Source: an uncultured archaeon
GTDB taxonomy: Archaea > Asgardarchaeota > Lokiarchaeia > Sigyniarchaeales > SOKP01
Assembly (NCBI GenBank): GCA_964525635.1
Contig: CAZGJX010000084.1
Span: forward strand, 1 to 19,988
Direction: 5' to 3'
Length of the DNA: 19,988 bases
Part shown: piece by piece, positions 274-18,714 of the stretch
How the letters are laid out: each line of letters starts with the position of its first letter
Position numbering within the stretch: position 1 is the stretch's first letter
The notes under the pieces: model-generated
The model's input: the letters and a program-made list of their open reading frames with translations, nothing else
The model's database searches: none
What the model was told of the DNA's origin: nothing
Made by a program: the position numbers and the translations under genes

Positions 274-1098
274 ATGAAAATATCAGATAAAATTATGAAA
301 ATCATATTTCTTGTAAGTATGATTTTCCTTATATCTATGACAATATACTGGTTAACTGGAAATCTAATCTTCCCAATTGATTTAGAAGAATTCGCCGCTA
401 TCACACAATTTGTTATTATTGTTACTGCAATAGGAATTGGTACTGTAATACTCATTTTAATTGGAATAATGTATAAACTCTCTACAATGTCAGGAAAAAT
501 ATGGTTTCTATTAGGATTAGGTATCTTAGGATGGTTTATAGGTGAGTTTTTATACAATTATTTGGAAATCTTTTTGAAGATAGAACCATTTCCAAGTATC
601 GCTGATTTTTTCTATCTGATTGCGTATTTACCTTTATCTATTGGACTAATATTACAAATGCGGTTAATAAAAATTAAACTATCTACTCTTGAAATTATTA
701 TCGTATTGATCTTGTTTGCAATTATATGCGTTTTAGTTAGTTTATTTGTTATAATCTTTCCCATCCAAGATTGGTATAGTTGGGATATTCCTGCTGAAGA
801 AGTAATACCATTATTGATTGGAATGGCTTATCCAGTGGTTGATCTAATTTTATTGTTCTTCGCTATGTTTGTATTAACTAAACTAAGACATGGGAAGATA
901 AGCATAGCTTGGTTATTATTACTTATAGGAATAATATGCACTATTATCGCAGATATTATTTACAATTACATTGAAAATACAACAGGATCTCAATTATTTG
1001 AACTTTATGACCTAGTATTTTTAATTGGATATGTCTTTATATATCTTAGCGGGTTTTCTATAATTAACGTAATGTCAAAATCATTTGAACAAAAATAA
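274..1098 (+). CDS. Polytopic membrane protein (about 8 TM) resembling a stand-alone membrane sensor module
   Basis: Hydrophobic segments throughout. Motifs W-x-LLGLG..WFIGE, PFPSIADFFYLIAY, AYPVVDLILL and ADIIY resemble the N-terminal membrane module of many GGDEF/His-kinase proteins, but no output domain is present. Confidence 0.75.
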   Translation: MKISDKIMKIIFLVSMIFLISMTIYWLTGNLIFPIDLEEFAAITQFVIIVTAIGIGTVILILIGIMYKLSTMSGKIWFLLGLGILGWFIGEFLYNYLEIFLKIEPFPSIADFFYLIAYLPLSIGLILQMRLIKIKLSTLEIIIVLILFAIICVLVSLFVIIFPIQDWYSWDIPAEEVIPLLIGMAYPVVDLILLFFAMFVLTKLRHGKISIAWLLLLIGIICTIIADIIYNYIENTTGSQLFELYDLVFLIGYVFIYLSGFSIINVMSKSFEQK

Positions 1099-1130: not shown

Positions 1131-1784
1131 ATGGTATTAAATGGTTTAATAATTTTGAAAGAAGGAGGAATTCCTTTTTATTCAAAATTTGTAGATATTA
1201 ATATTACTATGGATTCATTATTATTGGGCAGTTTCTTTACTGCCATGCAGAATTTTGCCAAAGAAATAGATGAAAATAAGGATACGTTTATAAAAGAAAT
1301 GCAAATCCATGAACTAATATTTCTATATAGGGAAATAGAATTTGGACTCTTTGTTGGTATTACAAAAGATAGAAAGGATTTAAAATCAACTACAATTGTA
1401 TTTGAATATATGATTTGGTCATTTATATCTAAATTTCGAAGTGCTCTTCAAGAACCAGATCCTGAACTCTCTCAATTTCAAGTATTTGATGATTTATTTA
1501 TGGAATACAGAACATCAAAAGAGAAAGAACTTCAAAAATGGTTGCAAAAGGAATCAATTGAGACTAATTTATTACAGAGGCTTTTAACTAATCTACTTAA
1601 TTATTTTCCAATAAAGGAAATTATGAAAGTTAATTCTAAATATTTAAAGATTATAGGTAATAAACTTATTCTAGTAAGTTTAAAGATCTCAAAAGAAGAA
1701 GAAAGTAAAATTATTGAAGATTTAAAAAATAAAGTTGCTGAAATTTACGGACCAGAGATGTTTGATACACTTCTAAATTCTTAA
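1131..1784 (+). CDS. Longin-like domain protein (Asgard eukaryotic signature protein type) with C-terminal extension
   Basis: N-terminal LIILKEGGIPFYSK, then DSLLLGSFFTAMQNFAKEI, IKEMQIHELIFLYR..GLFVGI and helix F-x-SKF..FQVFDDLF. This is the beta-beta-alpha-beta-beta-beta-alpha-alpha pattern of longin domains. Confidence 0.75.
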   Translation: MVLNGLIILKEGGIPFYSKFVDINITMDSLLLGSFFTAMQNFAKEIDENKDTFIKEMQIHELIFLYREIEFGLFVGITKDRKDLKSTTIVFEYMIWSFISKFRSALQEPDPELSQFQVFDDLFMEYRTSKEKELQKWLQKESIETNLLQRLLTNLLNYFPIKEIMKVNSKYLKIIGNKLILVSLKISKEEESKIIEDLKNKVAEIYGPEMFDTLLNS

Positions 1785-1990: not shown

Positions 1991-3571
1991 CTATTTAGAT
2001 GATTTTGCACTAATAATACGATCAACACGTAAAACAAGTGTAGAAAGTTCACTACCAGATAATATGATATGTTTTACAAGTTCGGTTGGTTCAACAATTC
2101 CATTTTCTAAATTGTTTAATATCTCATTTTTAATTGTATCAATTCCAATCCATTTATCTTCTGGAGTTTTATGTGCGGCTCTGAGATCAGTCATTTTTTC
2201 AATTTCATCTAATCCTGCATTTCGAATTAAGGTTTTTGGGATTTCTTCAAGTGCATTTGCAAATACTTGAACTGCAAGTTGTTCTTTTCCGCTCATTTCT
2301 GTAGCATAAGACTTTAATCTTTTAGCTAATTCCATATAAACAGCACCTCCACCTGCTACTATGGACTTAGTATCAATGATCTTCGCTAAAACATTAATAA
2401 CATCATGTAATGCATTTTCAGCAGTATGTAATATTTTTTCAAGACCACCTTTCAATAAAATTGCTACAGATTTTGGGTGTTCACAACCAGAGAAAAGAGT
2501 ATAATTATCATCTCCTATTTTTTCAAATTTAACCTTTTTTGCAAATCCAAGATCTTCTTCAGATAAATCTTTAAGATTATCAATTAAATTTGCATTAGTT
2601 GCATTTAATACTGCTTTTATATCTTTTTCACCTACACTTTTAATTGCAGCAATACCCTCTTTTCCTAATAAAGCACCAAACTTGTCGGAAATATCTTGAC
2701 TATTTACAATCATTTTTACACCTAAATTCTTAAAATACTCTAAGAAATTCATTAGCATTTCTTTTTCTTGATCTAAGAATTTCTGGATATCCTCTGGTCT
2801 TGAAATCTCAATCTTAGAATCATAAGTTGATTTGCTAATATCCAATTTTTTTCTTACAACAGCTATCTTAACATCCTTTAAAACATCAGGCATATTTGAA
2901 CTAATTTTTTCTTTATCAATATAAACTCCATTGATTAATTCAGATTCTTTTAAAGATTTTCCACTTGCTTTAATAATTTTTATATTGTTTACTTTATTAA
3001 AAATTGAACCTGTATTTTTTTCAGCTATATGTTTTACTGCTTTTAATACTAATTCAGCAAAATAATCTTTCACAGCAGCAATATCTTTTGAATTCATTGA
3101 TGTAAGAGCCGCATTTTTAAGCATTTTTAAATCATCTATTGATATTTTCTCTGCAATTTCACCAAGTATTTCTACGGCTTTATCCGCAGCTAGTTTATAT
3201 CCCTTCATTATTGGTTTTGGATGAATACCTTGTTCTATTAATTCTAGTGCATTTCTTAATAACGCAGCACAAAATACTACTGCAGAAGTTGTCCCATCAC
3301 CTACTTCTTTATCTATTGATTTAGCTAAATTAACCATCATTGTGGCAGCTACATTTTCTATAGATAATCTATCAAGAATCTCAGCCCCATCATTTGTTAT
3401 TGTTACATCTCCAAGAGAATCAACAAGCATTTTATCCATACCTTTTGGACCCATTGTAGACTGGACAGCTTCTGTTATAGCAATCATAGCATTAATATTT
3501 TGCCTTCTAGCTTCTTTTTCACGAACTTCTTCTGTCCCTTCTTTTAAAATTATAATCGGAATGTTTGACAT
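1991..3571 (-). CDS. ths: Thermosome subunit (group II chaperonin, TCP-1/Cpn60 family)
   Basis: STMGPKGMDKMLVD, TITNDGA, GDGTTSA P-loop, GIHP, VAGGGAVYMELA, FANALEEIPKTL, GIVEP and LRVDRII motifs. Confidence 0.96.
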   Translation of the reverse strand: MSNIPIIILKEGTEEVREKEARRQNINAMIAITEAVQSTMGPKGMDKMLVDSLGDVTITNDGAEILDRLSIENVAATMMVNLAKSIDKEVGDGTTSAVVFCAALLRNALELIEQGIHPKPIMKGYKLAADKAVEILGEIAEKISIDDLKMLKNAALTSMNSKDIAAVKDYFAELVLKAVKHIAEKNTGSIFNKVNNIKIIKASGKSLKESELINGVYIDKEKISSNMPDVLKDVKIAVVRKKLDISKSTYDSKIEISRPEDIQKFLDQEKEMLMNFLEYFKNLGVKMIVNSQDISDKFGALLGKEGIAAIKSVGEKDIKAVLNATNANLIDNLKDLSEEDLGFAKKVKFEKIGDDNYTLFSGCEHPKSVAILLKGGLEKILHTAENALHDVINVLAKIIDTKSIVAGGGAVYMELAKRLKSYATEMSGKEQLAVQVFANALEEIPKTLIRNAGLDEIEKMTDLRAAHKTPEDKWIGIDTIKNEILNNLENGIVEPTELVKHIILSGSELSTLVLRVDRIISAKSSK

Positions 3572-4151: not shown

Positions 4152-4307
4152 TAATTCGATAATTTTTTGCAGTGAATTTTCCTTTTTTTAGAATATATAT
4201 TTCCTTAAACAAACCAAAATCATTATAAGAATAGATCCAAGAAATCTAAATAATATTTAATAAAAGTGAAAGTTAAAAAAGAATATTTATTTTTTAATCT
4301 GAGTTCT

Positions 4308-5273
4308 ATGGATTTTTTTACTCATATGTTTATTGGAATTCTAATACCCATTCCTTTCTTAGGGTATGTTCCTCCAGAGACAGTCATGTTTATTTGGCTT
4401 ATGTCATTCTTACCCGATTTTGATATTCTTCTGGCTCCACTTCAAAAATTGCTAAATTCATATTTTCTTTCTCATAAAGCAGGATCGCATTCTTTTATAA
4501 TTGGTATTATATTTACTGGATCCATAAGTTACCTATTTAATTTAGTTATATCAGATTTTCAATTTTTGATGGCTTGGTTAGGTGCTTTAATTGGTTATTC
4601 TATTCATAACTTTTTAGATTATTTTACAGCTTCAAAGATCCCATTATTTTATCCAATATCAAGAAAAGAGTACAGATTTCTTGCAGACCGGGCTGTGAAT
4701 CCCTTACTTGCTTCCTTCTCTATTATTAATATTTTAATTTTAATATCATTATTCTTAACTGGTGCGAATCTATCTATATTTATTAATCTCTTTTATCTTT
4801 ATAGTTTTTGTTTAGTTTGTTATTTTGGATTTAAAGCAATTCTGAGATTAATTATTCAATCAAAATTACCAAAAGATAGTTTATATATTCCTGGTATTCT
4901 ACCTTATATTTATATTATCTATGAAAATCATAAAACAAATAATAAAATCAATTATAAGCTTATTAAAAAAAGACTTTTTGGATCAAGATCTATAGATATA
5001 ATAGAGAAATCTTATAGCTTTAATTCTGTAGAAATGGAATTTATCGATAAAACTTTGGAATACAGTAAAAAATTTAGATTTTTCTATAAATGGAATGCTG
5101 TAATTCCATTATTCAAAATAGATGGTGATTTTATTAATGTTATATTAGTTTTAGCGGAATCATATTCAAGACGAAGGTCTTATAGATTTACAATCATATT
5201 TAATAAAAATACAAAAGAAATAATAAAGAGAGAAGAAGGATTTATTAATCTTAATGATTGGTTAAATGTATAA
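4308..5273 (+). CDS. Membrane-bound metal-dependent hydrolase (YdjM / LexA-binding family) with soluble C-terminal extension
   Basis: MDFFTH, SFLPDFD, HKAGSHSF, SIHNFLDYFT and IPLFYP are the family motifs. The ATG at 4308 is preferred to the GTG at 4266 because family members begin MD-x-x-TH. Confidence 0.85.
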   Translation: MDFFTHMFIGILIPIPFLGYVPPETVMFIWLMSFLPDFDILLAPLQKLLNSYFLSHKAGSHSFIIGIIFTGSISYLFNLVISDFQFLMAWLGALIGYSIHNFLDYFTASKIPLFYPISRKEYRFLADRAVNPLLASFSIINILILISLFLTGANLSIFINLFYLYSFCLVCYFGFKAILRLIIQSKLPKDSLYIPGILPYIYIIYENHKTNNKINYKLIKKRLFGSRSIDIIEKSYSFNSVEMEFIDKTLEYSKKFRFFYKWNAVIPLFKIDGDFINVILVLAESYSRRRSYRFTIIFNKNTKEIIKREEGFINLNDWLNV

Positions 5274-5285
5274 ACTAAAATTTTA

Positions 5286-5738
5286 TCATATCTGCACATA
5301 TGATGTATTCTTATATTCTTTAAGAACCATATTTGATACTGTTCTTGTTACAGCCTCTTTTTCATTTAACTCTCTAATGAAATTATGAACATCATCACTT
5401 TCTCTAAACCTACAAATAAGTGCGGCAGATTGTTCTCCAGTAGTATGAAATACTGAACATACTTCAGGTTTATTCTTTATTTCATCAAGTATATCTTCGG
5501 TGGATTTACCTTTTATCTGAATTCTGATTAAAAAAGTGAGTTTATAACCTAATTTTGTGTTATTTAGCTTAATTGTGTATCCTTCAATAACCTCATTTTT
5601 TTTTAATTTTGCAATTCTATTATGGATTGTACCAATAGAAATACCTAATTTATCTTGGATTTCACGATAAGAAGTTCTTGCATTATCTTGGAGGATTCTA
5701 ATTATATCTTTATCAATATCATCAAAATCTTTTTTCAA
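5286..5738 (-). CDS. Lrp/AsnC family transcriptional regulator
   Basis: DDIDKDIIRILQDNARTSYREI..LGISIGTIHNRIAKL..VIEGY HTH plus a RAM domain (PEVCSVFHTTGE). TTG start preceded by GGAG. Confidence 0.95.
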   Translation of the reverse strand: MKKDFDDIDKDIIRILQDNARTSYREIQDKLGISIGTIHNRIAKLKKNEVIEGYTIKLNNTKLGYKLTFLIRIQIKGKSTEDILDEIKNKPEVCSVFHTTGEQSAALICRFRESDDVHNFIRELNEKEAVTRTVSNMVLKEYKNTSYVQI

Positions 5739-6270: not shown

Positions 6271-7974
6271 ATGAGAATTTTTTTAAATCATATTGGTTAC
6301 GATCAATATTATCCTAAAAAAGGAATAATCGAAGCATCTAAAGATTCAAATCTTCATACTTTTACTATTATTGAAAAAGAAAATAGAAAAGTAAAGTATA
6401 GTGGGGAAATTGAATTTAGTGGTCCTGTAGATCGATGGAAAAATTGGTATTTTTGGACTATTGATTTTTCAGATTTTAATGAATGTGGTTCTTTTTACAT
6501 AGAAATCCCATATGGAAATACAAAAATATTTTCTGAGAATTTTGAAATACAAAACAATCTAATTCAAGAAAAAATACTTCCATATATTCTTAAATATTTT
6601 AAATTGCAGAGATGTTCAGGCGTTTGGAATGAGGCAGATTATAGTATTCCATTTTTTGGTGATAGAAGCGACCGAGTAGATGTACATGGAGGTTGGTTCG
6701 ATGCCTCTGGTGATAAAAGTAAATATCTTAGTCATTTATCATACACTAATTTTATGAATCCTCAACAAGCACCAATGGTTGTTTGGAATTTACTATATGC
6801 TTTTGATAAATTATCAAATGAGAAAATTATATATAATAAAGATTTAGCTTCAGGATTTTATGAAGAAGCATTGTATGGTGCTGATTTTCTATTTAGAATG
6901 CAGGATAAAAAGGGATATTTTTATACTATTGTTTTTGATAAATGGACTGGAAATCCTAAAAGAAGAGAAATTTGTTCTTATTCAACTCAAAAAGGTATTA
7001 AATCAGATGATTATCAAGCAGGATATCGACAAGGTGCTGGATTGGCAATAGCAGCACTCGCAAAAGTAAGTATTCTTGGTTTATCAGGAGATTATACATC
7101 AGAACAATATTTAAATGCCGCCTTAAAGGGATTTGAACATTTAGAAAAGCATAATTTAGAGTATTTAAATAATCATAAAGAAAATATCATTGATGATTAT
7201 TGTGCTTTACTAGCTTCAATTGAATTGTATAACGCTTCAAAGGAACAAAAATATCTTGATTCTGCAAGAAAAAGGAGAATTTCCTTATGTAATCGTTTAT
7301 CTGATGATAAAAATTATGAGAATTGGTGGAGAGCTGATGATGATGGTTTAAGACCTTATTTTCATGCTGTAGAAGCAGGATTACCTTTAGTATCTTTAAT
7401 TCGGTATATGGAAGTTGAACCTAATAAAAAATTAACTGAAGAAGTATGGAAAATAATTAAAGATTCTTTAGAATTTGAATTGTTTATTACAACCGAAGTC
7501 AACAATCCATTTGGATATGCAAGACAATATATAAAACCTCTAAATGACCAAAAACAAACTAGTTTTTTCTTTCCTCACCAAAATGAATCAGGATATTGGT
7601 GGCAGGGCGAAAATGCTAGATTGGCTTCATTAGTTGTGGCAGCTAGATTAGGAATAAAATTATATGAAAATGATGACGTATTGGTAAAAAAGCTTGAGAG
7701 TTATGCTTTAGATCAATTAAACTGGATTTTAGGTTTAAATCCTTATAACGCTTGTTTTATACATGGAATTGGTAGAAATAATGTAGAATATGGTTTTGGA
7801 CATAACAATGTCCCGGGAGGTATATCTAATGGTATTACTAGCGGTTTTAATGATGAACATGATATCGATTTCTTACCAGAAATATGTGAAAAAAATCCAT
7901 TTCATAGATGGAGATGGAGTGAACAATGGATTCCTCATTCTGCCTGGTTTTTATTAGCAATTTGTTTAATTTAA
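6271..7974 (+). CDS. Glycoside hydrolase family 9, exo-beta-D-glucosaminidase-like subgroup
   Basis: N-terminal Ig-like module (NHIGY..WTIDFSDF..G.FYI). GH9 motif DVHGGWFDASGD followed by KYLSHLSY.NFMNPQQ, ENIIDDYCAL, RPYFHAVEAGLP, WWQGENARLASL, WILGLNPY and WRWSEQWIPH. No signal peptide. Confidence 0.9.
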   Translation: MRIFLNHIGYDQYYPKKGIIEASKDSNLHTFTIIEKENRKVKYSGEIEFSGPVDRWKNWYFWTIDFSDFNECGSFYIEIPYGNTKIFSENFEIQNNLIQEKILPYILKYFKLQRCSGVWNEADYSIPFFGDRSDRVDVHGGWFDASGDKSKYLSHLSYTNFMNPQQAPMVVWNLLYAFDKLSNEKIIYNKDLASGFYEEALYGADFLFRMQDKKGYFYTIVFDKWTGNPKRREICSYSTQKGIKSDDYQAGYRQGAGLAIAALAKVSILGLSGDYTSEQYLNAALKGFEHLEKHNLEYLNNHKENIIDDYCALLASIELYNASKEQKYLDSARKRRISLCNRLSDDKNYENWWRADDDGLRPYFHAVEAGLPLVSLIRYMEVEPNKKLTEEVWKIIKDSLEFELFITTEVNNPFGYARQYIKPLNDQKQTSFFFPHQNESGYWWQGENARLASLVVAARLGIKLYENDDVLVKKLESYALDQLNWILGLNPYNACFIHGIGRNNVEYGFGHNNVPGGISNGITSGFNDEHDIDFLPEICEKNPFHRWRWSEQWIPHSAWFLLAICLI

Positions 7975-8378: not shown

Positions 8379-8870
8379 TTGAAGATTTTAATCTTATATT
8401 TCTCAATGACGGGACGGACTAAGATGGTTGCAGAGAAAATTGCATCAAAACTTAATTCTTCAGATGTGACTATTGAGCAAATTAAATATTCCAATAAATT
8501 AAAAGAGCTGTGGCCAAAACAAGAAGAAATAAAGAAGGGAAACCTATCGGACTTTGAATATAATGATTCTATTTTAGATCATGAACCTTATGATCTCATA
8601 TTCTTTGGAACCCCTACTCATGGTGCAAATCCAGCAGTTGTTTTTTATGGGTATATAGAGCGAGTAAAAAATATTAAAGGAAAGAATTTTATCATCTTTA
8701 ATACATGTAGAGCCTTTGCTGGAAAAATCTTAAGAAAGATGGAAGCGGAAATAGAAAAGAAAGGGGGAAAAGTGGTAAATGAACGGATTTTCAGGAATTT
8801 ATTTAAGATTAAACTATCAAAAGTTAATAATTTTATAGATGAGCTCAACAAGGCATATTTTAATAATTAA
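8379..8870 (+). CDS. Flavodoxin family protein
   Basis: MKILILYFSMTGRTKMVAEKIA FMN-phosphate loop, YDLIFFGTPT and GKNFIIFNTC. Confidence 0.9.
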   Translation: MKILILYFSMTGRTKMVAEKIASKLNSSDVTIEQIKYSNKLKELWPKQEEIKKGNLSDFEYNDSILDHEPYDLIFFGTPTHGANPAVVFYGYIERVKNIKGKNFIIFNTCRAFAGKILRKMEAEIEKKGGKVVNERIFRNLFKIKLSKVNNFIDELNKAYFNN

Positions 8871-8925: not shown

Positions 8926-11346
8926 TTATACTAACTGCTCAACTTGTGGTTTCTCTTTTAGATCTATATCTTGAGCCGCCCAAAAAGATTGAATGCGCTT
9001 GATGACCTCTTGGGGTTCTTCAATTTTCCAATCGGTTGGAAGAACACTCTTATAATAGAGGGTGCTAAATCGATGTCCAATTAACATTACAAAACCACGA
9101 TCAGTTGATGTCCGGAATATTCGTCCCGCAGCCTGAATCACTTTCATCATACCAGGATTTCGATAAGCATATTCAAAACCTTTTTTCCATTTAAATTCAA
9201 AATACTTTCGCATTAATTCTTGTTCCATTGAAAAAGCGGGTAGTCCTGGACCGATAATGAAGGCTCCGATGGCCATATCTCCAATATAATCCACACCTTC
9301 ACTAAAGATTCCCCCATGCACTGCTAATAAAAGATATTTTTTATCTGGAGTCTGGAGTTTTTTTAAATACATTTTACGTTTTCTTTCACTCATTTGACGT
9401 TCTTGCACTATAAGCTCAACTGAAAGTGAGCAAGTTTCTATCTCTCGCTGGACTGCTTTAAGATATGCAAATGAAGGAAAAAAAGCTAAATAATTTCCAT
9501 TTTTAACATTCACGGCTTTACAAATTATGGAGGCAATTAGATCATACGACTCCCGACGGTTTTCATATTTTGTGGAAAGATTAGGCATGAGAAGATAAAG
9601 GCGATTTTGGTGAGAAAATGGGGAATTATATTGTATTATTTGTGCTGAGGGGGGAAACCCTACCATTTTTTGGAAATAATCGAGTGGAAATAAAGTTGCT
9701 GATTGCATTATGACCGAATGAAACCCTATGATTTGTTTTTCAAGTTTTGGTGCTGCAGATTTACATAATATTTTGATTTTCCCTTCTTTTATATACAATA
9801 ATTCATTATACTCAGGAGAATCACATTCTTGTAAGATCATGGAAAACTGGTGCAAATTTAAACCAAATTCTATTACCTTATCCTTTCCTCCAGGTTGACA
9901 TCCTTGTTGAAAAATGTATGCTTGAATATAATTTAAAATAAGTTGATCATAATCCTTTACTATTTTGTCGAAAAATTTTATATCAAATTTAACCAAAACA
10001 GGATTTTTTATTGATGAATCAGGAAATTGGCTAATTAGATTTGTAATGTAATTATATATCTGTTGATAAATAGTTATAAACTTCTGCTCAATAGACTTTG
10101 CTATACTTCTTGATTGTAAATAATTGGTACTTTCCGTTAGAGATTGTAATGTTATTTCTGGCGAATAATAAGTTATTGCTCGGGTGGGCAAATTATGGGC
10201 TTCATCGACAATTAATATGATATCATCATAAGTTTGGTGAAAAAACCGCTTCAACCGGATGTAAGGATGGAATACATAATTGTAATCCCCAACAATTACA
10301 TCACAAAAGAGAGCACAATCCAGAGAAATTTCAAAAGGGCAAACCATATGGCTTTTAGCTATTTTTCTAATATATCTAGCATTAATGACTTGTTTAGTGA
10401 GTAATTCTGAAATGACTTCATCCAATGGCACCTTCCCATAATTATTAAGATAGGGACATAATGAATTCTCACAGATAAAAACATCATTAATACAAATCTT
10501 TTCTTTAGCGGTGAGAATAATCGAATTAAATTTGGTTTTCTTTTTAATAAAAATCTTTAAAGTCTCCTGATATATATTTTGCTGGGTGGTTTTTGAGGTA
10601 ACCACGAATATTCGTAGATTTTTCTTTAAAGCATATTTTAGCGCAGGAAATAGAGTTGCAACTGTTTTTCCCAAACCAGAAGGTGCTAAAAGCATTAAAC
10701 GTTCTTTTCTTTGAAGACTTTTAATAGATTTTTGAATAATTTTTTCTTGATTTGGACGATATTCCTTAAAGGGAAAAACTACTGTATTGGCACGTAATTG
10801 TTGGTCTTTTTTTAATTTTTGATTAAATTCCCAAGAAATTAAAATAGTTTCACATTGTTTTTGAATATATTCCGAAAGATCTTGAGGGATAACATCAATA
10901 ATTTTAGTTTTTTCAGAAAAAACATCTATTAATACAAGATGACACTTAATCACCTTACCTAATTGGAGAAAATAATAACCATATAATAATAATTGTAAAC
11001 GATATTCATTAGCAGTTTGTGATTCAAGATCAAAGTCATCAAGGTTTAAGATTGATTTAATTTCTTCGATAATTTTAGTTCCTTCCTTTTCATAGACTAT
11101 ATCAGCACGTCCCGAAATGATAAATTTCCAACCTTGTACCTCTGTCTGATATTTTACTAAAACTTCACGTTGAAAATTCTTTTCAGTTTTCTCTCTTTTT
11201 TTTTGAAAAAATTGATGGATTTTAATTCCCTTTGAGGCTCGAATGCGAATTGGTATAGTCGAATTAAAAGGTCTATGAGTATAAGATGCAAAAATAATAT
11301 CTTTTATCAAAATATGGAATTCTTTATGTTCCTTGATGACTTTCAA
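8926..11346 (-). CDS. ATP-dependent DinG/Rad3/XPD-family Fe-S DNA helicase with N-terminal PD-(D/E)XK (Cas4-like fold) nuclease domain
   Basis: Nuclease motifs IH..E..SGRADIV..IIEEIKS..QLLLYG. Helicase motifs: Q motif (FPFKEYRPNQ), APSGLGKT, Fe-S Cys (KEKIC..C....CPY..CPFE), DEAH, SAT, FSEGVD and QAAGRIFR. Confidence 0.92.
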   Translation of the reverse strand: MKVIKEHKEFHILIKDIIFASYTHRPFNSTIPIRIRASKGIKIHQFFQKKREKTEKNFQREVLVKYQTEVQGWKFIISGRADIVYEKEGTKIIEEIKSILNLDDFDLESQTANEYRLQLLLYGYYFLQLGKVIKCHLVLIDVFSEKTKIIDVIPQDLSEYIQKQCETILISWEFNQKLKKDQQLRANTVVFPFKEYRPNQEKIIQKSIKSLQRKERLMLLAPSGLGKTVATLFPALKYALKKNLRIFVVTSKTTQQNIYQETLKIFIKKKTKFNSIILTAKEKICINDVFICENSLCPYLNNYGKVPLDEVISELLTKQVINARYIRKIAKSHMVCPFEISLDCALFCDVIVGDYNYVFHPYIRLKRFFHQTYDDIILIVDEAHNLPTRAITYYSPEITLQSLTESTNYLQSRSIAKSIEQKFITIYQQIYNYITNLISQFPDSSIKNPVLVKFDIKFFDKIVKDYDQLILNYIQAYIFQQGCQPGGKDKVIEFGLNLHQFSMILQECDSPEYNELLYIKEGKIKILCKSAAPKLEKQIIGFHSVIMQSATLFPLDYFQKMVGFPPSAQIIQYNSPFSHQNRLYLLMPNLSTKYENRRESYDLIASIICKAVNVKNGNYLAFFPSFAYLKAVQREIETCSLSVELIVQERQMSERKRKMYLKKLQTPDKKYLLLAVHGGIFSEGVDYIGDMAIGAFIIGPGLPAFSMEQELMRKYFEFKWKKGFEYAYRNPGMMKVIQAAGRIFRTSTDRGFVMLIGHRFSTLYYKSVLPTDWKIEEPQEVIKRIQSFWAAQDIDLKEKPQVEQLV

Positions 11347-11533: not shown

Positions 11534-11884
11534 TCATAAACGAATTTTCGTTCCACATATCATACAAAAATTAGCATTTTTCATGTGTTTATTACCACAA
11601 ATAGGACAGCAATCTATTTTTCTTAAATCAGATATTGATTGTTTAGATTCATCTTCAAAAAAAAAAATATCTTCAATTCGACAATTAAAAACTCGAGAAA
11701 GTTTAAAAGCTAACTCAATAGAAGGATTATAACGTCCTTTCTCGATAGCAAGTATTGTTTGTCTTGATACATTAACTAATTGGGAAAGAGCAAATTGAGT
11801 AAGATCAAATCTTGCCCGAAATTCTTTTATTCTGTTTTTCAACTTTATTACCTTAATTAATTGATTGTTAATTTTGTTTTTCAA
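11534..11884 (-). CDS. XRE/Cro-family HTH regulator with C-terminal zinc ribbon
   Basis: LKNRIKEFRARFDLTQFALSQLVNVSRQTILAIEKGRYNPSIELAFKLSRVFNCRIEDIF, followed by CPICG-x8-FCMICG. The true start is uncertain and may be near LKNRIK. Confidence 0.9.
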   Translation of the reverse strand: MKNKINNQLIKVIKLKNRIKEFRARFDLTQFALSQLVNVSRQTILAIEKGRYNPSIELAFKLSRVFNCRIEDIFFFEDESKQSISDLRKIDCCPICGNKHMKNANFCMICGTKIRL

Positions 11885-13223: not shown

Positions 13224-16007
13224 ATGAAAAAAAATTCTAATAGTAAATTATTTTTATTAATTTTTATGATTTTATGTATTGCCTCCTCAAGTTTACAACT
13301 AGAAATAAGCTTAGATTCATTTAAACCACAAAAAGAAAATGAATTAAATTATCCTTCAACTGCTGGCGGTCCGGGATTAGAATGGATGAGAACTTGGGGC
13401 GGAACTACTCCATTTGATGTATGGGATGGTATATATTATTATAAAGATTTTGGTCATGATGTTGCAATAGATTCCCAAAATAATATATATATTGCTGGTG
13501 AAACTGCATATGGAAGTGGCAAAAATGATTTTTGTTTAGTGAAGTATGATTCTGAAGGAAATGAGTTATGGAGTAGAATTTGGGGAGGAGATCGTTATGA
13601 TTCTGTTTATGGAGTGGCTGTTGATTCTGAAGATAATGTCTATATTTCTGGAGATTATCATTTTTATATCGCCCAAGAATCTGTAGATGGACAAATTGCA
13701 ACCATTAAATATAGTAGTAATGGAACAAAATTGTGGGAAAATATCTGGGGAGGCTCTGGAGAAGAAGAATGTAAAGGGTTGGTTGTAGATTCTGAAGATA
13801 ATATTTACATAGGAGGGGAACAGGATGAAAATTTCTTATTACTAAAATATAATAAATTGGGAACCCTTATATGGTCACGAATAATAAGTGGTTCAAATCC
13901 AGATTGGTGCTATGATATTGCAATAGATCCTAATGAAAATATAATTTTGACAGGAGTTACTAATAGTTTTGGTACATTTGGTCATTTTAATACATTTATT
14001 GTAAAATATAATAAAAATGGTGTAAAATTATGGCAGACTACATATAGCGGAGCATTTGAGAGTTGGGGATATGAAGTTACTACGGATTCTTATAATGATA
14101 TATATATTTTAGGTAATACTGATGAAACTGGTTCTGATCAACTATCATTATTAAAATATTCCTCATCGGGAAGTCTTTTATGGAAAAAAAATTGGAGTGG
14201 TCGAGGATATTTACAAAAATCTAGATTTAACTCCCATAATGGTGATTTAGCTGTAAATTCTGAAGATTTAATTTTCTTTACAACTACTTCTAGAACTTTA
14301 TGGGTTTATAATAGGACGGGAGATTTTCAATCAGCGTTTGATTACTCTCCTAGTGGGATTATTGATTGTAATGCGATCTCATTCGATTCTGAAGAAAATA
14401 TATTTTTAGGCGGTGCTAAGCTAATCGGTTATGACTATTTATGTTTAGTTAAATATAATCCTTCGAGACCTCCCAATATATCTATATCATTTCCAAAAAA
14501 TATGGAAATCTTTAGTTACGATGCTCCATTTTTTAATATTTCTTATTCTGATCCTGATATAGATTATTCATGGTATACTCTTAATAATTCATCTAATAAA
14601 TATTATATTCAGAACAACCATGAGCGAATAAATCAAACAGCTTGGAATCTATTAGATGAGGGTATCATCTCAATAAGTTTTTATGCTAATGATTCACTAG
14701 GCCAAACAGGAGTAAGGAAAGTTTTTGTAGTTAAAGATACAACTCCACCAACCATTGATATTTTATCTCCAATAGCAAATCAATTATGTGGTAAGAATAC
14801 TATTAATTATAATATCATTATTAATGATCCTCATTTAAATATGACATGGTATACATTAAATGGAGAAGGTTTTAATCTGTTTGAAGGGAATTCTGGAACA
14901 ATTAATCAATCAGCATGGGATGAATGTGGAAATGGTACTGTACTTATAAGATTTTATGCAAATGATTCTGTAAATAATCTACATTATGAAGAAATTAGTG
15001 TGAGAAAAAGTATTCAATTTCCTCAGATAACTATAGAAACACCTATATCAAATCAATTATGTGGTAAGAATACTATTGATTTTGAACTTACTATAGATAG
15101 TCCTAATTTAAATAAGACATGGTATACGTTAAATGGAGAAGGTTTTAATCTGTTTGAAGGAAATTCTGGAACAATCAATCAATCAGCATGGGATGAATGT
15201 GGAAATGGTACTGTAGTGATAAGTTTTTATGCAAATAATACCGAAGGAAATATAGGTTGTGAAGAGATTACCGTCAGGAAAGATATTCTCCCACCTGATA
15301 TAATTTTTGAATTTTCTACTGAATTTTTAAATACAACTCATCCAGAATATTTCCATAATTACTTAAAAATTAGTTGTGAAGTTTTTGATAGTATAGATAT
15401 TATTTGGGTTTATCTATGTGAAAATTCTTCAGGTTCATTCTTAAATCATCAAATGATAAATACAGAATTTAATATTTGGTCATTTGATTTAAACATTTCT
15501 AATTTAGATTGGAATGAAATCTTTTCATTTTATTTTAATTCTAGTGATTTAAATGGAAATATTGGGATAAATGATAATTTAACAATACCTTATATCATTA
15601 AAATCTATGATCTTCAACCCCCTGTAACTCAAATTCATTTGGAAAATAATATTGATGTCAATGTTGTTGATAAAAATACGATCTTTTACTTATACGCTGA
15701 AGATGAATGTTCAGGAATTAACATAATATTATATAGAATTAACAATTTAGAATGGATTGCATATGAAGAACCATTTAAATTACACAATTTAAAGAGTGGA
15801 GAGTATATTATTTATTTTTATTCTATTGATAATGATGGAAATGTCGAAGAAATAAAAGAATTTACATTTATATATAAAGGAGAAAAATCATCTAGTCTAC
15901 TGGTATCTGGTTATGAAATCACTATAATTATTTCTATGATGATTGTAATACAAATAATTTATGCATCTAAACATTATTTCAAATCTCGAAGAAAAACACT
16001 TTCTTAA
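13224..16007 (+). CDS. Cell-surface glycoprotein: signal peptide, SBBP-type beta-propeller, tandem Ig-like domains, C-terminal GY-TM-basic anchor (Loki-CTERM-like)
   Basis: Basic/hydrophobic N-terminus. Repeated VAIDS..NIYI.G / LVKY...G..LW...WGG blades. Three WYTLN..INQ.AW..G...I.FYAND repeats, a final D..PP.T..SG...YRIN..YSIDNDGNVE domain, and the tail VSGY + TM + KSRRK. Many N-x-S/T sequons. Confidence 0.88.
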   Translation: MKKNSNSKLFLLIFMILCIASSSLQLEISLDSFKPQKENELNYPSTAGGPGLEWMRTWGGTTPFDVWDGIYYYKDFGHDVAIDSQNNIYIAGETAYGSGKNDFCLVKYDSEGNELWSRIWGGDRYDSVYGVAVDSEDNVYISGDYHFYIAQESVDGQIATIKYSSNGTKLWENIWGGSGEEECKGLVVDSEDNIYIGGEQDENFLLLKYNKLGTLIWSRIISGSNPDWCYDIAIDPNENIILTGVTNSFGTFGHFNTFIVKYNKNGVKLWQTTYSGAFESWGYEVTTDSYNDIYILGNTDETGSDQLSLLKYSSSGSLLWKKNWSGRGYLQKSRFNSHNGDLAVNSEDLIFFTTTSRTLWVYNRTGDFQSAFDYSPSGIIDCNAISFDSEENIFLGGAKLIGYDYLCLVKYNPSRPPNISISFPKNMEIFSYDAPFFNISYSDPDIDYSWYTLNNSSNKYYIQNNHERINQTAWNLLDEGIISISFYANDSLGQTGVRKVFVVKDTTPPTIDILSPIANQLCGKNTINYNIIINDPHLNMTWYTLNGEGFNLFEGNSGTINQSAWDECGNGTVLIRFYANDSVNNLHYEEISVRKSIQFPQITIETPISNQLCGKNTIDFELTIDSPNLNKTWYTLNGEGFNLFEGNSGTINQSAWDECGNGTVVISFYANNTEGNIGCEEITVRKDILPPDIIFEFSTEFLNTTHPEYFHNYLKISCEVFDSIDIIWVYLCENSSGSFLNHQMINTEFNIWSFDLNISNLDWNEIFSFYFNSSDLNGNIGINDNLTIPYIIKIYDLQPPVTQIHLENNIDVNVVDKNTIFYLYAEDECSGINIILYRINNLEWIAYEEPFKLHNLKSGEYIIYFYSIDNDGNVEEIKEFTFIYKGEKSSSLLVSGYEITIIISMMIVIQIIYASKHYFKSRRKTLS
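14776..15234 (+). repeat. Intragenic tandem duplication, 273-bp (91-aa) period
   Basis: 14843-14942 and 15116-15215 match at 97 of 100 nt. caaatcaattatgtggtaagaatactatt is identical at 14776 and 15049. Confidence 0.92.
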
Positions 16008-16334: not shown

Positions 16335-17546
16335 TCAACCTTTTACTTTTAGATTCGTTCTCTTTCTAAGCGTGGCTTTGAGAATTAGAGTTTCAATGCG
16401 TCGTAAAGCAACAATATCTTTTTTTGGAATGAGTTCATAAAGTTCCTCAAGTTCCTCCAAGTTAAGAAGCTTAAAGAAATCATTTTTTAATAAATATCGA
16501 TAGGCTTCAAAATTATCTTCTTTTAGATACAAAATAATTTCTTTCTTGATGATTTTTTTTGCTCTAGTAATCCCCCTTTCAATTAATTCTTTTAGAAGTG
16601 GGTACCATAACCTTCTTTTTTCCATGAAGGCGAAGTTCACGTTTTTATCAAGCCATTCTTCAAATAATACTTCTAATTCCTCATTTGAAAAGAGCTTAAG
16701 ATATTTCTCATTTAGATAAAAAATAATTGTATTATGATTGTTTGAAGCAATTCTCTGTGCGATGCTTTCCTTCAATCGAATAATAGCTTTTTTATCTCCT
16801 AAGAATGCCATTTTTTTAAGTAATGGAATTGACAAACTACTATGTAAAATTCTGAGATCATAATCATGTTCATACCACGCCTGGAGATTAGAACAATGGC
16901 CGATAAATTCAGATTCAGGATCAATTAGTTCATGATTTCTTTCATGTATTTTATCTATTTTGTTATAAATCTCAAACGCCTCGTCAATTGAATCAATATA
17001 ATCAAATTTAGCAAAATCCTTTTGAGTGAGGTTCATGAGCAAATACTTGCATTGATGAAAGGGATTTTCATCTGCATAAATTACCGTTTGCCCCTTAATT
17101 AATTTTAACGTGAGATGTTCATTAATTCGATATTCTCTCTCCTCAGGATAGTTTTCTTTTTCTTTTTTTTCTAATCTTTCACTATTGCGTATATATTTCA
17201 TGTCTGCTAATCTTTCTTTAACTTCCATTGATTCCATATTAAATGCATCAAGAAATTCATGAAGTTCATCTCCTTGGTCAATCGATACAATTTTACATTG
17301 ATGATAACGAGAATCTTTCAATAATTCTCCTTGTAGATCTCGTGCAACAAAAGTACTTATAAATCTTTTTTTTACAGGAGATTTTGCACCTTTCCAAATG
17401 AAGATCCTTCTTAAGTCTTCTCGGACGAGCAATAAAACTTGTTCTGGACGGATATTTTGCGCTAAATCCCTTTCAGAGAAATTAAGCTCTTTTTTTTTCC
17501 CGCTATCATCAAGTTCATAGGCAAAGAAAATCCTTAATTCAACCAT
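16335..17546 (-). CDS. Gelsolin-like domain fused to a Lokiarchaeal 'HCSNLQAW' domain and duplicated helical repeats
   Basis: aa ~30-103 (QVLLLV..RRIFIWKGAKSPVKKRF..A..L..IVSIDQGDELHEFLDAF) fit the gelsolin core (IFIWxG..S..K and xQGxE..EF). aa 137-250 read EYRINEHLTLKL..T.IY....F.QCKYLL..DSIDEA..EFIGHCSNLQAWYEHDYD.RILHS.L..PLLKK. Confidence 0.82.
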   Translation of the reverse strand: MVELRIFFAYELDDSGKKKELNFSERDLAQNIRPEQVLLLVREDLRRIFIWKGAKSPVKKRFISTFVARDLQGELLKDSRYHQCKIVSIDQGDELHEFLDAFNMESMEVKERLADMKYIRNSERLEKKEKENYPEEREYRINEHLTLKLIKGQTVIYADENPFHQCKYLLMNLTQKDFAKFDYIDSIDEAFEIYNKIDKIHERNHELIDPESEFIGHCSNLQAWYEHDYDLRILHSSLSIPLLKKMAFLGDKKAIIRLKESIAQRIASNNHNTIIFYLNEKYLKLFSNEELEVLFEEWLDKNVNFAFMEKRRLWYPLLKELIERGITRAKKIIKKEIILYLKEDNFEAYRYLLKNDFFKLLNLEELEELYELIPKKDIVALRRIETLILKATLRKRTNLKVKG

Positions 17547-17934: not shown

Positions 17935-18714
17935 ATGGTATTTAATAAAAAAAAAATTCCATTAACAACTATAGTAGGTATTATAGGTATTCTCTTCTAT
18001 TGCATTTTAGTTTTTATTTCTGCCTTTTTATGTATTGGTTCATGGAACCCTATAGATAATTATCTTAGTGATTTTGGAAATTCAAGTTCTTCTTGGAATC
18101 CAAATGGAGCTATTTTTTTTGATCTTGCACTTATTATACTAGGAACTACATTAATTCTGTATTATATAAGTTTATATAAATGGTCAGGAGAATTAAAAAC
18201 AGAATACAATGAGAATATTTTAAACATAACTCAATTTATAGGTTTTCTTGTTGGAATCTTTTTGATTCTTTTTGGATTTTCTTATAATCTTAAATATACT
18301 TTCTATGGTTTTCCATTATTAATATTTTATAGTATAGGTTTATGTATGAGGGCAGAAAATCTAAAAAAAATATGGAATAAATCAGCTTTAATATTTACTC
18401 AAATTATAGGTTCTCTTTCCGGAATCTTTGTAATTACAGCGGGAATTTTTCCAACAGTAATTACAGAAGCACATGATTTGGCATCAGCACTATTTTTCAA
18501 TACTCATCTTTTTACATTTATCTTATTAGTGTTAACCATTCTTCCACACAAGAAATTTATTAAAATAATCGGTTTATATGGATGGATTGTCGCTTGTTTG
18601 ATTTTTTTGGATTTAGTATATCATAAACCAATATTTGAATGGATAAGTGTATTTAGTTCATTGAGTTTCATGGGATTGTTATCATATAATACTTATAAAG
18701 CATTTAGTGAATAA
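17935..18714 (+). CDS. DUF998-like membrane protein with an internal hairpin duplication
   Basis: WNPIDNYLSDFGN..NPNGAIFF, GIFP....HDLASALFF and IFEWI motifs; about 8 TM segments. Confidence 0.78.
   Translation: MVFNKKKIPLTTIVGIIGILFYCILVFISAFLCIGSWNPIDNYLSDFGNSSSSWNPNGAIFFDLALIILGTTLILYYISLYKWSGELKTEYNENILNITQFIGFLVGIFLILFGFSYNLKYTFYGFPLLIFYSIGLCMRAENLKKIWNKSALIFTQIIGSLSGIFVITAGIFPTVITEAHDLASALFFNTHLFTFILLVLTILPHKKFIKIIGLYGWIVACLIFLDLVYHKPIFEWISVFSSLSFMGLLSYNTYKAFSE

Follow-up and report, generated by a model that had tools for sequence, protein, structure and literature searches.

The window, by which we mean the whole stretch of 19,988 nucleotides that was analysed, belongs to a genome of 4.45 Mb and 27% GC and carries a gene in which a gelsolin-homology domain is joined via a charged linker to an unrelated second part. 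The open reading frame, its linker and its motifs were found as the sequence-only reading had described them, except that the part behind the linker (aa 135-403), which had been taken for one domain, consists of a head of ~100 aa, a helical repeat of ~60 aa, a second such repeat and a terminal helix. Throughout, "HCSN domain" is a name coined in this analysis for aa 136-300. The features of the gene are the following:

16335..17546, minus strand: whole fusion gene, 403 aa with an ATG start; gelsolin domain, HCSN domain and an extra helical repeat
17181..17546, minus strand: single gelsolin-homology domain (aa 1-122); its fold matches, and it originates from a Lokiarchaeia 1DGelX-type paralog
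17319..17396, minus strand: actin-binding element of the family, made up of the WxG motif (W51-K52-G53) and the long helix (aa 56-76)
17142..17180, minus strand: charged linker (aa 123-135), flexible and of low pLDDT
16842..17141, minus strand: conserved HCSN head (aa 136-235), a four-stranded beta-meander followed by helices
16875..16901, minus strand: GHCSNLQAW signature (aa 216-224) within the HCSN head, carried by helices
16647..16841, minus strand: helical repeat 1 (aa 236-300), four helices, part of the HCSN family profile
16428..16646, minus strand: helical repeat 2 (aa 301-373 as tabulated here), a duplicate of repeat 1
16338..16415, minus strand: basic C-terminal helix (aa 378-403)

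Repeat 2 was recognised as a second copy of repeat 1 (aa 298-373, 38.9 bits), and both together build a short alpha-solenoid in the fusion protein, which is soluble, no transmembrane segment being found in its 403 residues. About 70 full-length orthologs with identities of 66-84% were retrieved under the labels Promethearchaeota or Lokiarchaeota, among them Lokiarch_33820/KKK42604.1 from the founding Lokiarchaeum genome GC14_75; two of the orthologs bear merely the UniRef label 'Gelsolin-like domain-containing protein', and the linker of the orthologs occurs either in the short form seen here or in a form ~23 aa longer. Furthermore, the junction is covered without mismatch by contigs of run X1 and of X3, a separate sample (16828-17381), whereby run X1 may itself be the source of the assembly and X3 is independent of it. 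These orthologs, the presence of the gene in 23 genomes and the separate-sample contig refute an assembly chimera or a chance read-through, which is left with next to no probability, and the fusion is real, as had been proposed. DNA of the window is present in salt-marsh metagenomes, and no RNA dataset was found among those listed as carrying it.

Elsewhere in the window, a multipass membrane protein (274-1098, plus strand) is followed by a 217-aa protein (1131-1784, plus strand), both without a Pfam hit; the latter, which we take to be longin/roadblock-like in appearance, also adjoins the thermosome gene in genome G036. A glycoside hydrolase of family 9 with a CelD_N domain (6271-7974, plus strand) is unusual for an archaeon, and an XPD/DinG-type helicase with a weak N-terminal match to a PD-(D/E)XK nuclease was located at 8926-11346 (minus strand). 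The thermosome subunit (1991-3571), YdjM (4266-5273), an Lrp/AsnC regulator (5286-5738), a flavodoxin (8379-8870), an HTH plus zinc ribbon protein (11534-11884) and a DUF998 protein (17935-18714) are ordinary neighbours. The gene convergent with the fusion gene (13224-16007, plus strand) encodes 927 aa; its protein has hydrophobic ends, contains SBBP beta-propeller as well as Ig-like repeats and is probably surface-exposed.

Fold and origin of the gelsolin domain

Although the Pfam gelsolin match of the N-terminal domain is weak (E 0.015) and stays under the cut-off, the gelsolin domain was confirmed by comparisons of sequence and structure. Its best PDB sequence match is ProGel of Thorarchaeota, 7C2F (phmmer, E 6e-5), to which the predicted model was also aligned by Foldseek (E 5.8e-5, TM by target 0.81) and by VIA-align (Z 13.5, 32% identity, rmsd 2.1, 88/88 residues aligned), the latter ranking ProGel above other gelsolin domains and cofilins. 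Sequence and fold searches unveiled one gelsolin match only in the fusion protein, and the full-length feature search with this protein gave no usable match.

The gelsolin domain is ~65% identical to a near-universal paralog, designated GelX type, in which one gelsolin domain is followed by a low-complexity linker and a C-terminal domain. As the latter stands behind single gelsolin domains throughout the Asgard classes, it was taken as domain X, and the paralog is taken, by layout and distribution, to be of the published 1DGelX type. In the host genome a query with domain X gave four matches, on contigs C24 (twice), C9 and C130, and none on C84, which carries the fusion. The GelX-type parent gene (L019, G000:C24:21355-22533) contains two tandem copies of domain X, a duplication that several of its relatives share.

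In the gelsolin tree, rooted on family f3, the gelsolin domains of all 21 fusions group together in a single clade (100/99) within GelX, inside family f1. In the HCSN tree, the HCSN domains of the fusions lie within unfused HCSN-plus-repeat proteins and these within stand-alone HCSN proteins (SH-aLRT 95, 99 and 99). No gelsolin gene was found beside the two unfused HCSN-plus-repeat genes that were checked, and the carriers of the fusion retain the GelX-type parent gene. On the level of sequence, the gelsolin clade, the nesting in the HCSN tree and the unfused genes without an adjacent gelsolin show a single fusion event, in which domain X of a 1DGelX-type protein was swapped for an already existing HCSN-plus-repeat protein.

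Published Asgard gelsolins comprise ProGel, 1DGelX, 2DGel and its extended form, and single-domain proteins that end in disordered tails. With 1DGelX/GelX (Akil et al. 2020, PMC7444086; preprint 10.1101/2025.11.30.690169) the fusion shares the N-terminal position of a single gelsolin domain, the lack of calcium sites in it and a further domain behind it, and its gelsolin nests among the paralogs of that layout; however, the HCSN domain, which is unrelated, and helical repeats stand where GelX has its long low-complexity linker and domain X, and whereas GelX is near-universal the fusion is patchy and mobile. ProGel has the WxG motif and likewise no calcium Glu, but it is a bare domain of ~90 aa, in contrast to a fusion with 280 residues more that is conserved over its full length. 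The extended 2DGels of Loki- and Heimdallarchaeia (PMC9433394) are similar in combining the gelsolin fold with lineage-specific C-terminal extensions; the fusion differs in having one gelsolin domain and neither the WH2-like motif, the type II calcium Glu nor the zinc finger. Narrow, shuffled architectures of eukaryotic signature proteins (ESPs) are a known Asgard trait (Liu et al., 10.1101/2020.10.19.343400), and the fusion resembles the examples given there in its ESP domain, its restriction to few genomes and its horizontal transfer; neither its architecture nor its HCSN partner is mentioned in the portion of that text that was searched. GC14_75 has been credited with 'three 1DGelXs', and earlier counts may have included the fusion under 1DGelX. 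In the papers that were searched, neither a description of the architecture nor the ortholog accessions were found. Among the single-domain Asgard gelsolins the fusion is a real variant and, in line with the initial suggestion, apparently one not described before.

The HCSN family

The second domain had been assigned to a highly expanded Lokiarchaeal family, mostly N-terminal and often placed before LRRs, and the census bore this out. The host genome contains 23 HCSN copies, 17 of them with LRRs and 21 at the N-terminus, the fusion gene and C15:35851 being the two exceptions to the latter. The family as a whole comprises 2,847 clusters at 50% identity, and among its best 147 representatives 124 have the domain at the N-terminus, 67 carry LRRs, 103 carry extra helical repeats (repeat 1 occurs in tandem copies in most family representatives) and none carries a gelsolin domain. 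The domain was detected in 128 of 134 genomes of the host's family, and most of the order's sister families have it too. Related genomes differ in copy number between 0 and 23, and no copy was found in the three closed genomes of sister family f3. Essentially, the domain is restricted to a single order; only one of 239 genomes from other genera of the phylum contains it; both copies of that genome (L129, L131) reside on one short contig, G237:C177, where their presence is due to transfer or to binning contamination.

Besides LRRs, the partners of the domain include TPRs, N-terminal Ras/Roc GTPases (Ras-family in P0137, P0170, P0254 and P0261), DUF4240 (P0122, P0206), a Cdc6/Orc1 AAA+ protein (P0262) and a weak histone-fold match (P0251), that is mostly binding or switch domains. 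Many Lokiarchaeial members of the Asgard LRR proteins of unassigned function (PMC13734099) begin with HCSN; the passages searched in that report do not describe this N-terminal domain, and the fusion, unlike these proteins, has no LRR.

HCSN genes were also found on three IMG/VR genomes that measure 99-112 kb and have terminal repeats, one of which encodes a terminase and two a family B polymerase:

L114:5746-6624, IMG/VR genome: viral HCSN gene
L115:5983-6894, IMG/VR genome: viral HCSN gene
L116:5746-7053, IMG/VR genome: viral HCSN gene

These copies are divergent and have extensions of their own. In addition, P0087 (L108:3650-4345), a stand-alone HCSN gene and close sister of the domain of the fusion, lies on a virus-like contig among short co-oriented ORFs, a DnaJ gene and a WGR-ligase gene; this contig has one gene, 68% identical, in common with the viral genome L114. 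No viral-contig relatives of the gelsolin part of the fusion or of P0087 were found.

The fusion matched the HCSN profile with 232.6 bits over profile positions 3-169, including the signature residues. Searches with the profile in Pfam, NCBIfam, PDB sequences, PADLOC and PHROGs gave no consistent match, and the predicted model (pLDDT 88.5) had no Foldseek hit at E<=0.001 in the PDB or in BFVD, by which a new fold is not shown. The best VIA Z for the model was 4.6, obtained mainly over the helical repeat, whereas the rows for the head were non-significant (7XML_D with Z 4.3, rmsd 2.8 and 61 aligned residues; 6D7K_H with Z 3.8). Atlas structures with TM >0.5 to the domain came from Promethearchaeota clusters only. 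HCSN is a large, unnamed family outside any curated family.

Near-invariant positions of the domain are C166, S186, D188, E213, H217, C218, S219, N220, W224, E226, Y229 and H235. Across 130 sequences that are ~40% identical, C166 is retained in 129, H217, C218 and D188 in 127 each, E226 in 126, E213 in 125 and H235 in 117 of them, and the Cys and HCS residues persist in the viral copies as well. Such Cys, His, Asp and Glu residues would be just as suitable for binding a metal or for catalysis, and the head might accordingly be metal-binding or catalytic, with the fusion being an enzyme that is delivered to actin or to actin-bound proteins. We regard this as quite unlikely, given that every one of these positions except Y229 is naturally substituted, that neighbouring His and Cys on the same helix would make an awkward ligand pair and that the profiles of enzyme families gave no match.

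Spread and selection

The architecture recurs in the Asgard survey, as had been asked of it, in single copy in 23 of 161 genomes of the class, which represent five genera of one family (22 of the 134 other genomes of that family). Gelsolin fusions of greater length (707-2015 aa) were not found, which is weak evidence. Across 21 fusion loci no neighbours were shared except within close pairs, and neither a repeat or IS-like signal nor a promoter excess was detected around the gene. The reading of the locus as an operon or an undescribed system was therefore rejected; the fusion is an accessory gene instead.

Monophyly of the host's genus was rejected in the fusion tree (AU p 0.02), whereas the same genus is monophyletic for GelX. 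No donor genus is claimed, because the fusions of genus g5 may be monophyletic (p 0.25) and the gelsolin tree does not resolve where family f1 is rooted. Thermosome identity tracks the genus, with 84% within and 69% between genera, compared with 78% and 74% for the fusion. In 53 of 55 genome pairs, which are non-independent and to whose result codon bias could add, the fusion shows fewer synonymous differences than the thermosome gene, and likewise fewer than GelX; a second control gene for dS (window 1131-1781) was found in only one of ten genomes. Together, the patchy distribution, the missing synteny, the non-monophyly of the genus and the low synonymous divergence support horizontal transfer of the fusion among genera, as judged from these comparisons. 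The ratio dN/dS is below 1 in every domain, indicating purifying selection; for the gelsolin domain it amounts to 0.11-0.36 (nine pairs), which is two to three times the GelX value for close pairs.

This mobility, together with the viral HCSN genes, the virus-like contig of P0087, copy numbers that vary from none to 23 and the layout of a constant domain with variable LRRs, would also fit a host-virus conflict, in which HCSN is the signalling unit of LRR or TPR sensors, viral HCSN copies interfere and the gelsolin domain, whose helix position 66 is variable, serves as bait or sensor of the state of actin or of viral proteins attacking gelsolins. We consider such a role unlikely, if worth keeping in view, since PADLOC (2023 library) gave no match, the 21 loci have no conserved neighbour and recurring neighbours include no defence gene. 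Moreover, the fusion contains neither an NTPase nor a TIR and, by comparison with NLR/Roco-like receptors, neither a STAND or Roc-COR NTPase nor an LRR sensor, and selection on all of its domains is purifying.

A candidate actin tether

Within the gelsolin domain, W51 and G53 of the WxG motif are retained in all 21 fusions, and most of the positions that are invariant in GelX (R46, R47, W51, G53, V58, R61, F62, S64, Q72, K85 and DQGDE) are kept in at least 19 of them. R59 is replaced by K, N or T in all 21, and R66, common to ProGel and GelX, survives in four, being F66 here. The position of the type II calcium Glu is occupied by K60, the Asp-Glu pair of 2DGel aligning with K59-K60, and E35, a candidate counterpart of the Asp in the published DWG motif, stands opposite an acidic residue of ProGel. 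With Lys60 in place of the type II Glu, regulation of the domain by calcium appears unlikely from its sequence, in agreement with one-domain Asgard gelsolins not being calcium regulated; Thor ProGel and 1DGelX bind actin in a calcium-free manner.

The loss of the GelX-invariant R59 and, in most fusions, of the likewise invariant R66 as well as the faster evolution of the domain relative to GelX count against a function at actin. Gelsolin folds without known actin binding exist (Sec23), the affinity of ProGel is already negligible (Kd 337 uM), and the domain could thus have ceased to bind actin and have taken over a structural role or another partner, as in Sec23/24. We judge this improbable, since the helix, with a mean identity of 78% as against 72%, is conserved above the remainder of the domain and an identity of ~65% to the parent family is too close for a full change of the surface.

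At a probability of about 0.5, we favour that the fusion is a calcium-independent, weak actin tether that carries a docking module. The gelsolin fold, the conserved residues of the WxG motif and helix, the purifying selection and the Lokiactin encoded by the host genome (E 9e-133) are in line with such a tether, and gelsolin-homology proteins including single-domain ones co-precipitate with Lokiactin in L. ossiferum. By analogy to ProGel and 1DGelX, the long helix would bind the cleft lying between actin's subdomains 1 and 3 without calcium. ProGel, whose binding to actin is very weak, bundles filaments, 1DGelX severs them, and domain X has been proposed to bind filament sides and to enable severing (PMC7444086); with domain X lost, weak binding as in ProGel would therefore be expected rather than severing. 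Following the logic of its domain partners, HCSN would be a docking module for a common partner that is usually aimed by LRR, TPR or small-GTPase domains, and in the fusion the gelsolin domain would aim it at Lokiactin, thereby bringing the HCSN partner to the cytoskeleton.

The sequence-only reading had used the fusion as a Rosetta stone, and its actin-targeted adaptor is still the likeliest role for the fusion protein itself. The extension to the whole HCSN family goes too far: the domain is near-ubiquitous in the host's family and joined to many partners, gelsolin in a single recent lineage of one origin, so that the fusion links its own protein and not the HCSN family to actin. Inference from fusions is weak for promiscuous domains.

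A wider reading, which we put forward only as a long shot, is that HCSN, perhaps a new fold, is an undescribed module of one Lokiarchaeia order for assembly or signalling in a network that LRR, TPR and small-GTPase proteins form, exploited by viruses and wired to Lokiactin by the fusion; if true, it would parallel eukaryotic gelsolin-LRR adaptors or integrated-decoy immune receptors.

Being recent and lineage-restricted, the fusion has little bearing on the origin of eukaryotes. Asgard actin regulation is thought to rest almost only on profilins and three gelsolin types, to which the fusion adds a further gelsolin architecture; its origin can be traced, both parents being extant, and its horizontal spread is ongoing. 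The absence of HCSN from the three closed sister-family genomes may explain why the family went unstudied, and, as far as the consulted passages of PMC13734099 go, the fusion offers the first experimental handle on the large unnamed domain that heads many Lokiarchaeial LRR proteins. The fusion shows how domain shuffling re-wires actin regulators within one Lokiarchaeial family.
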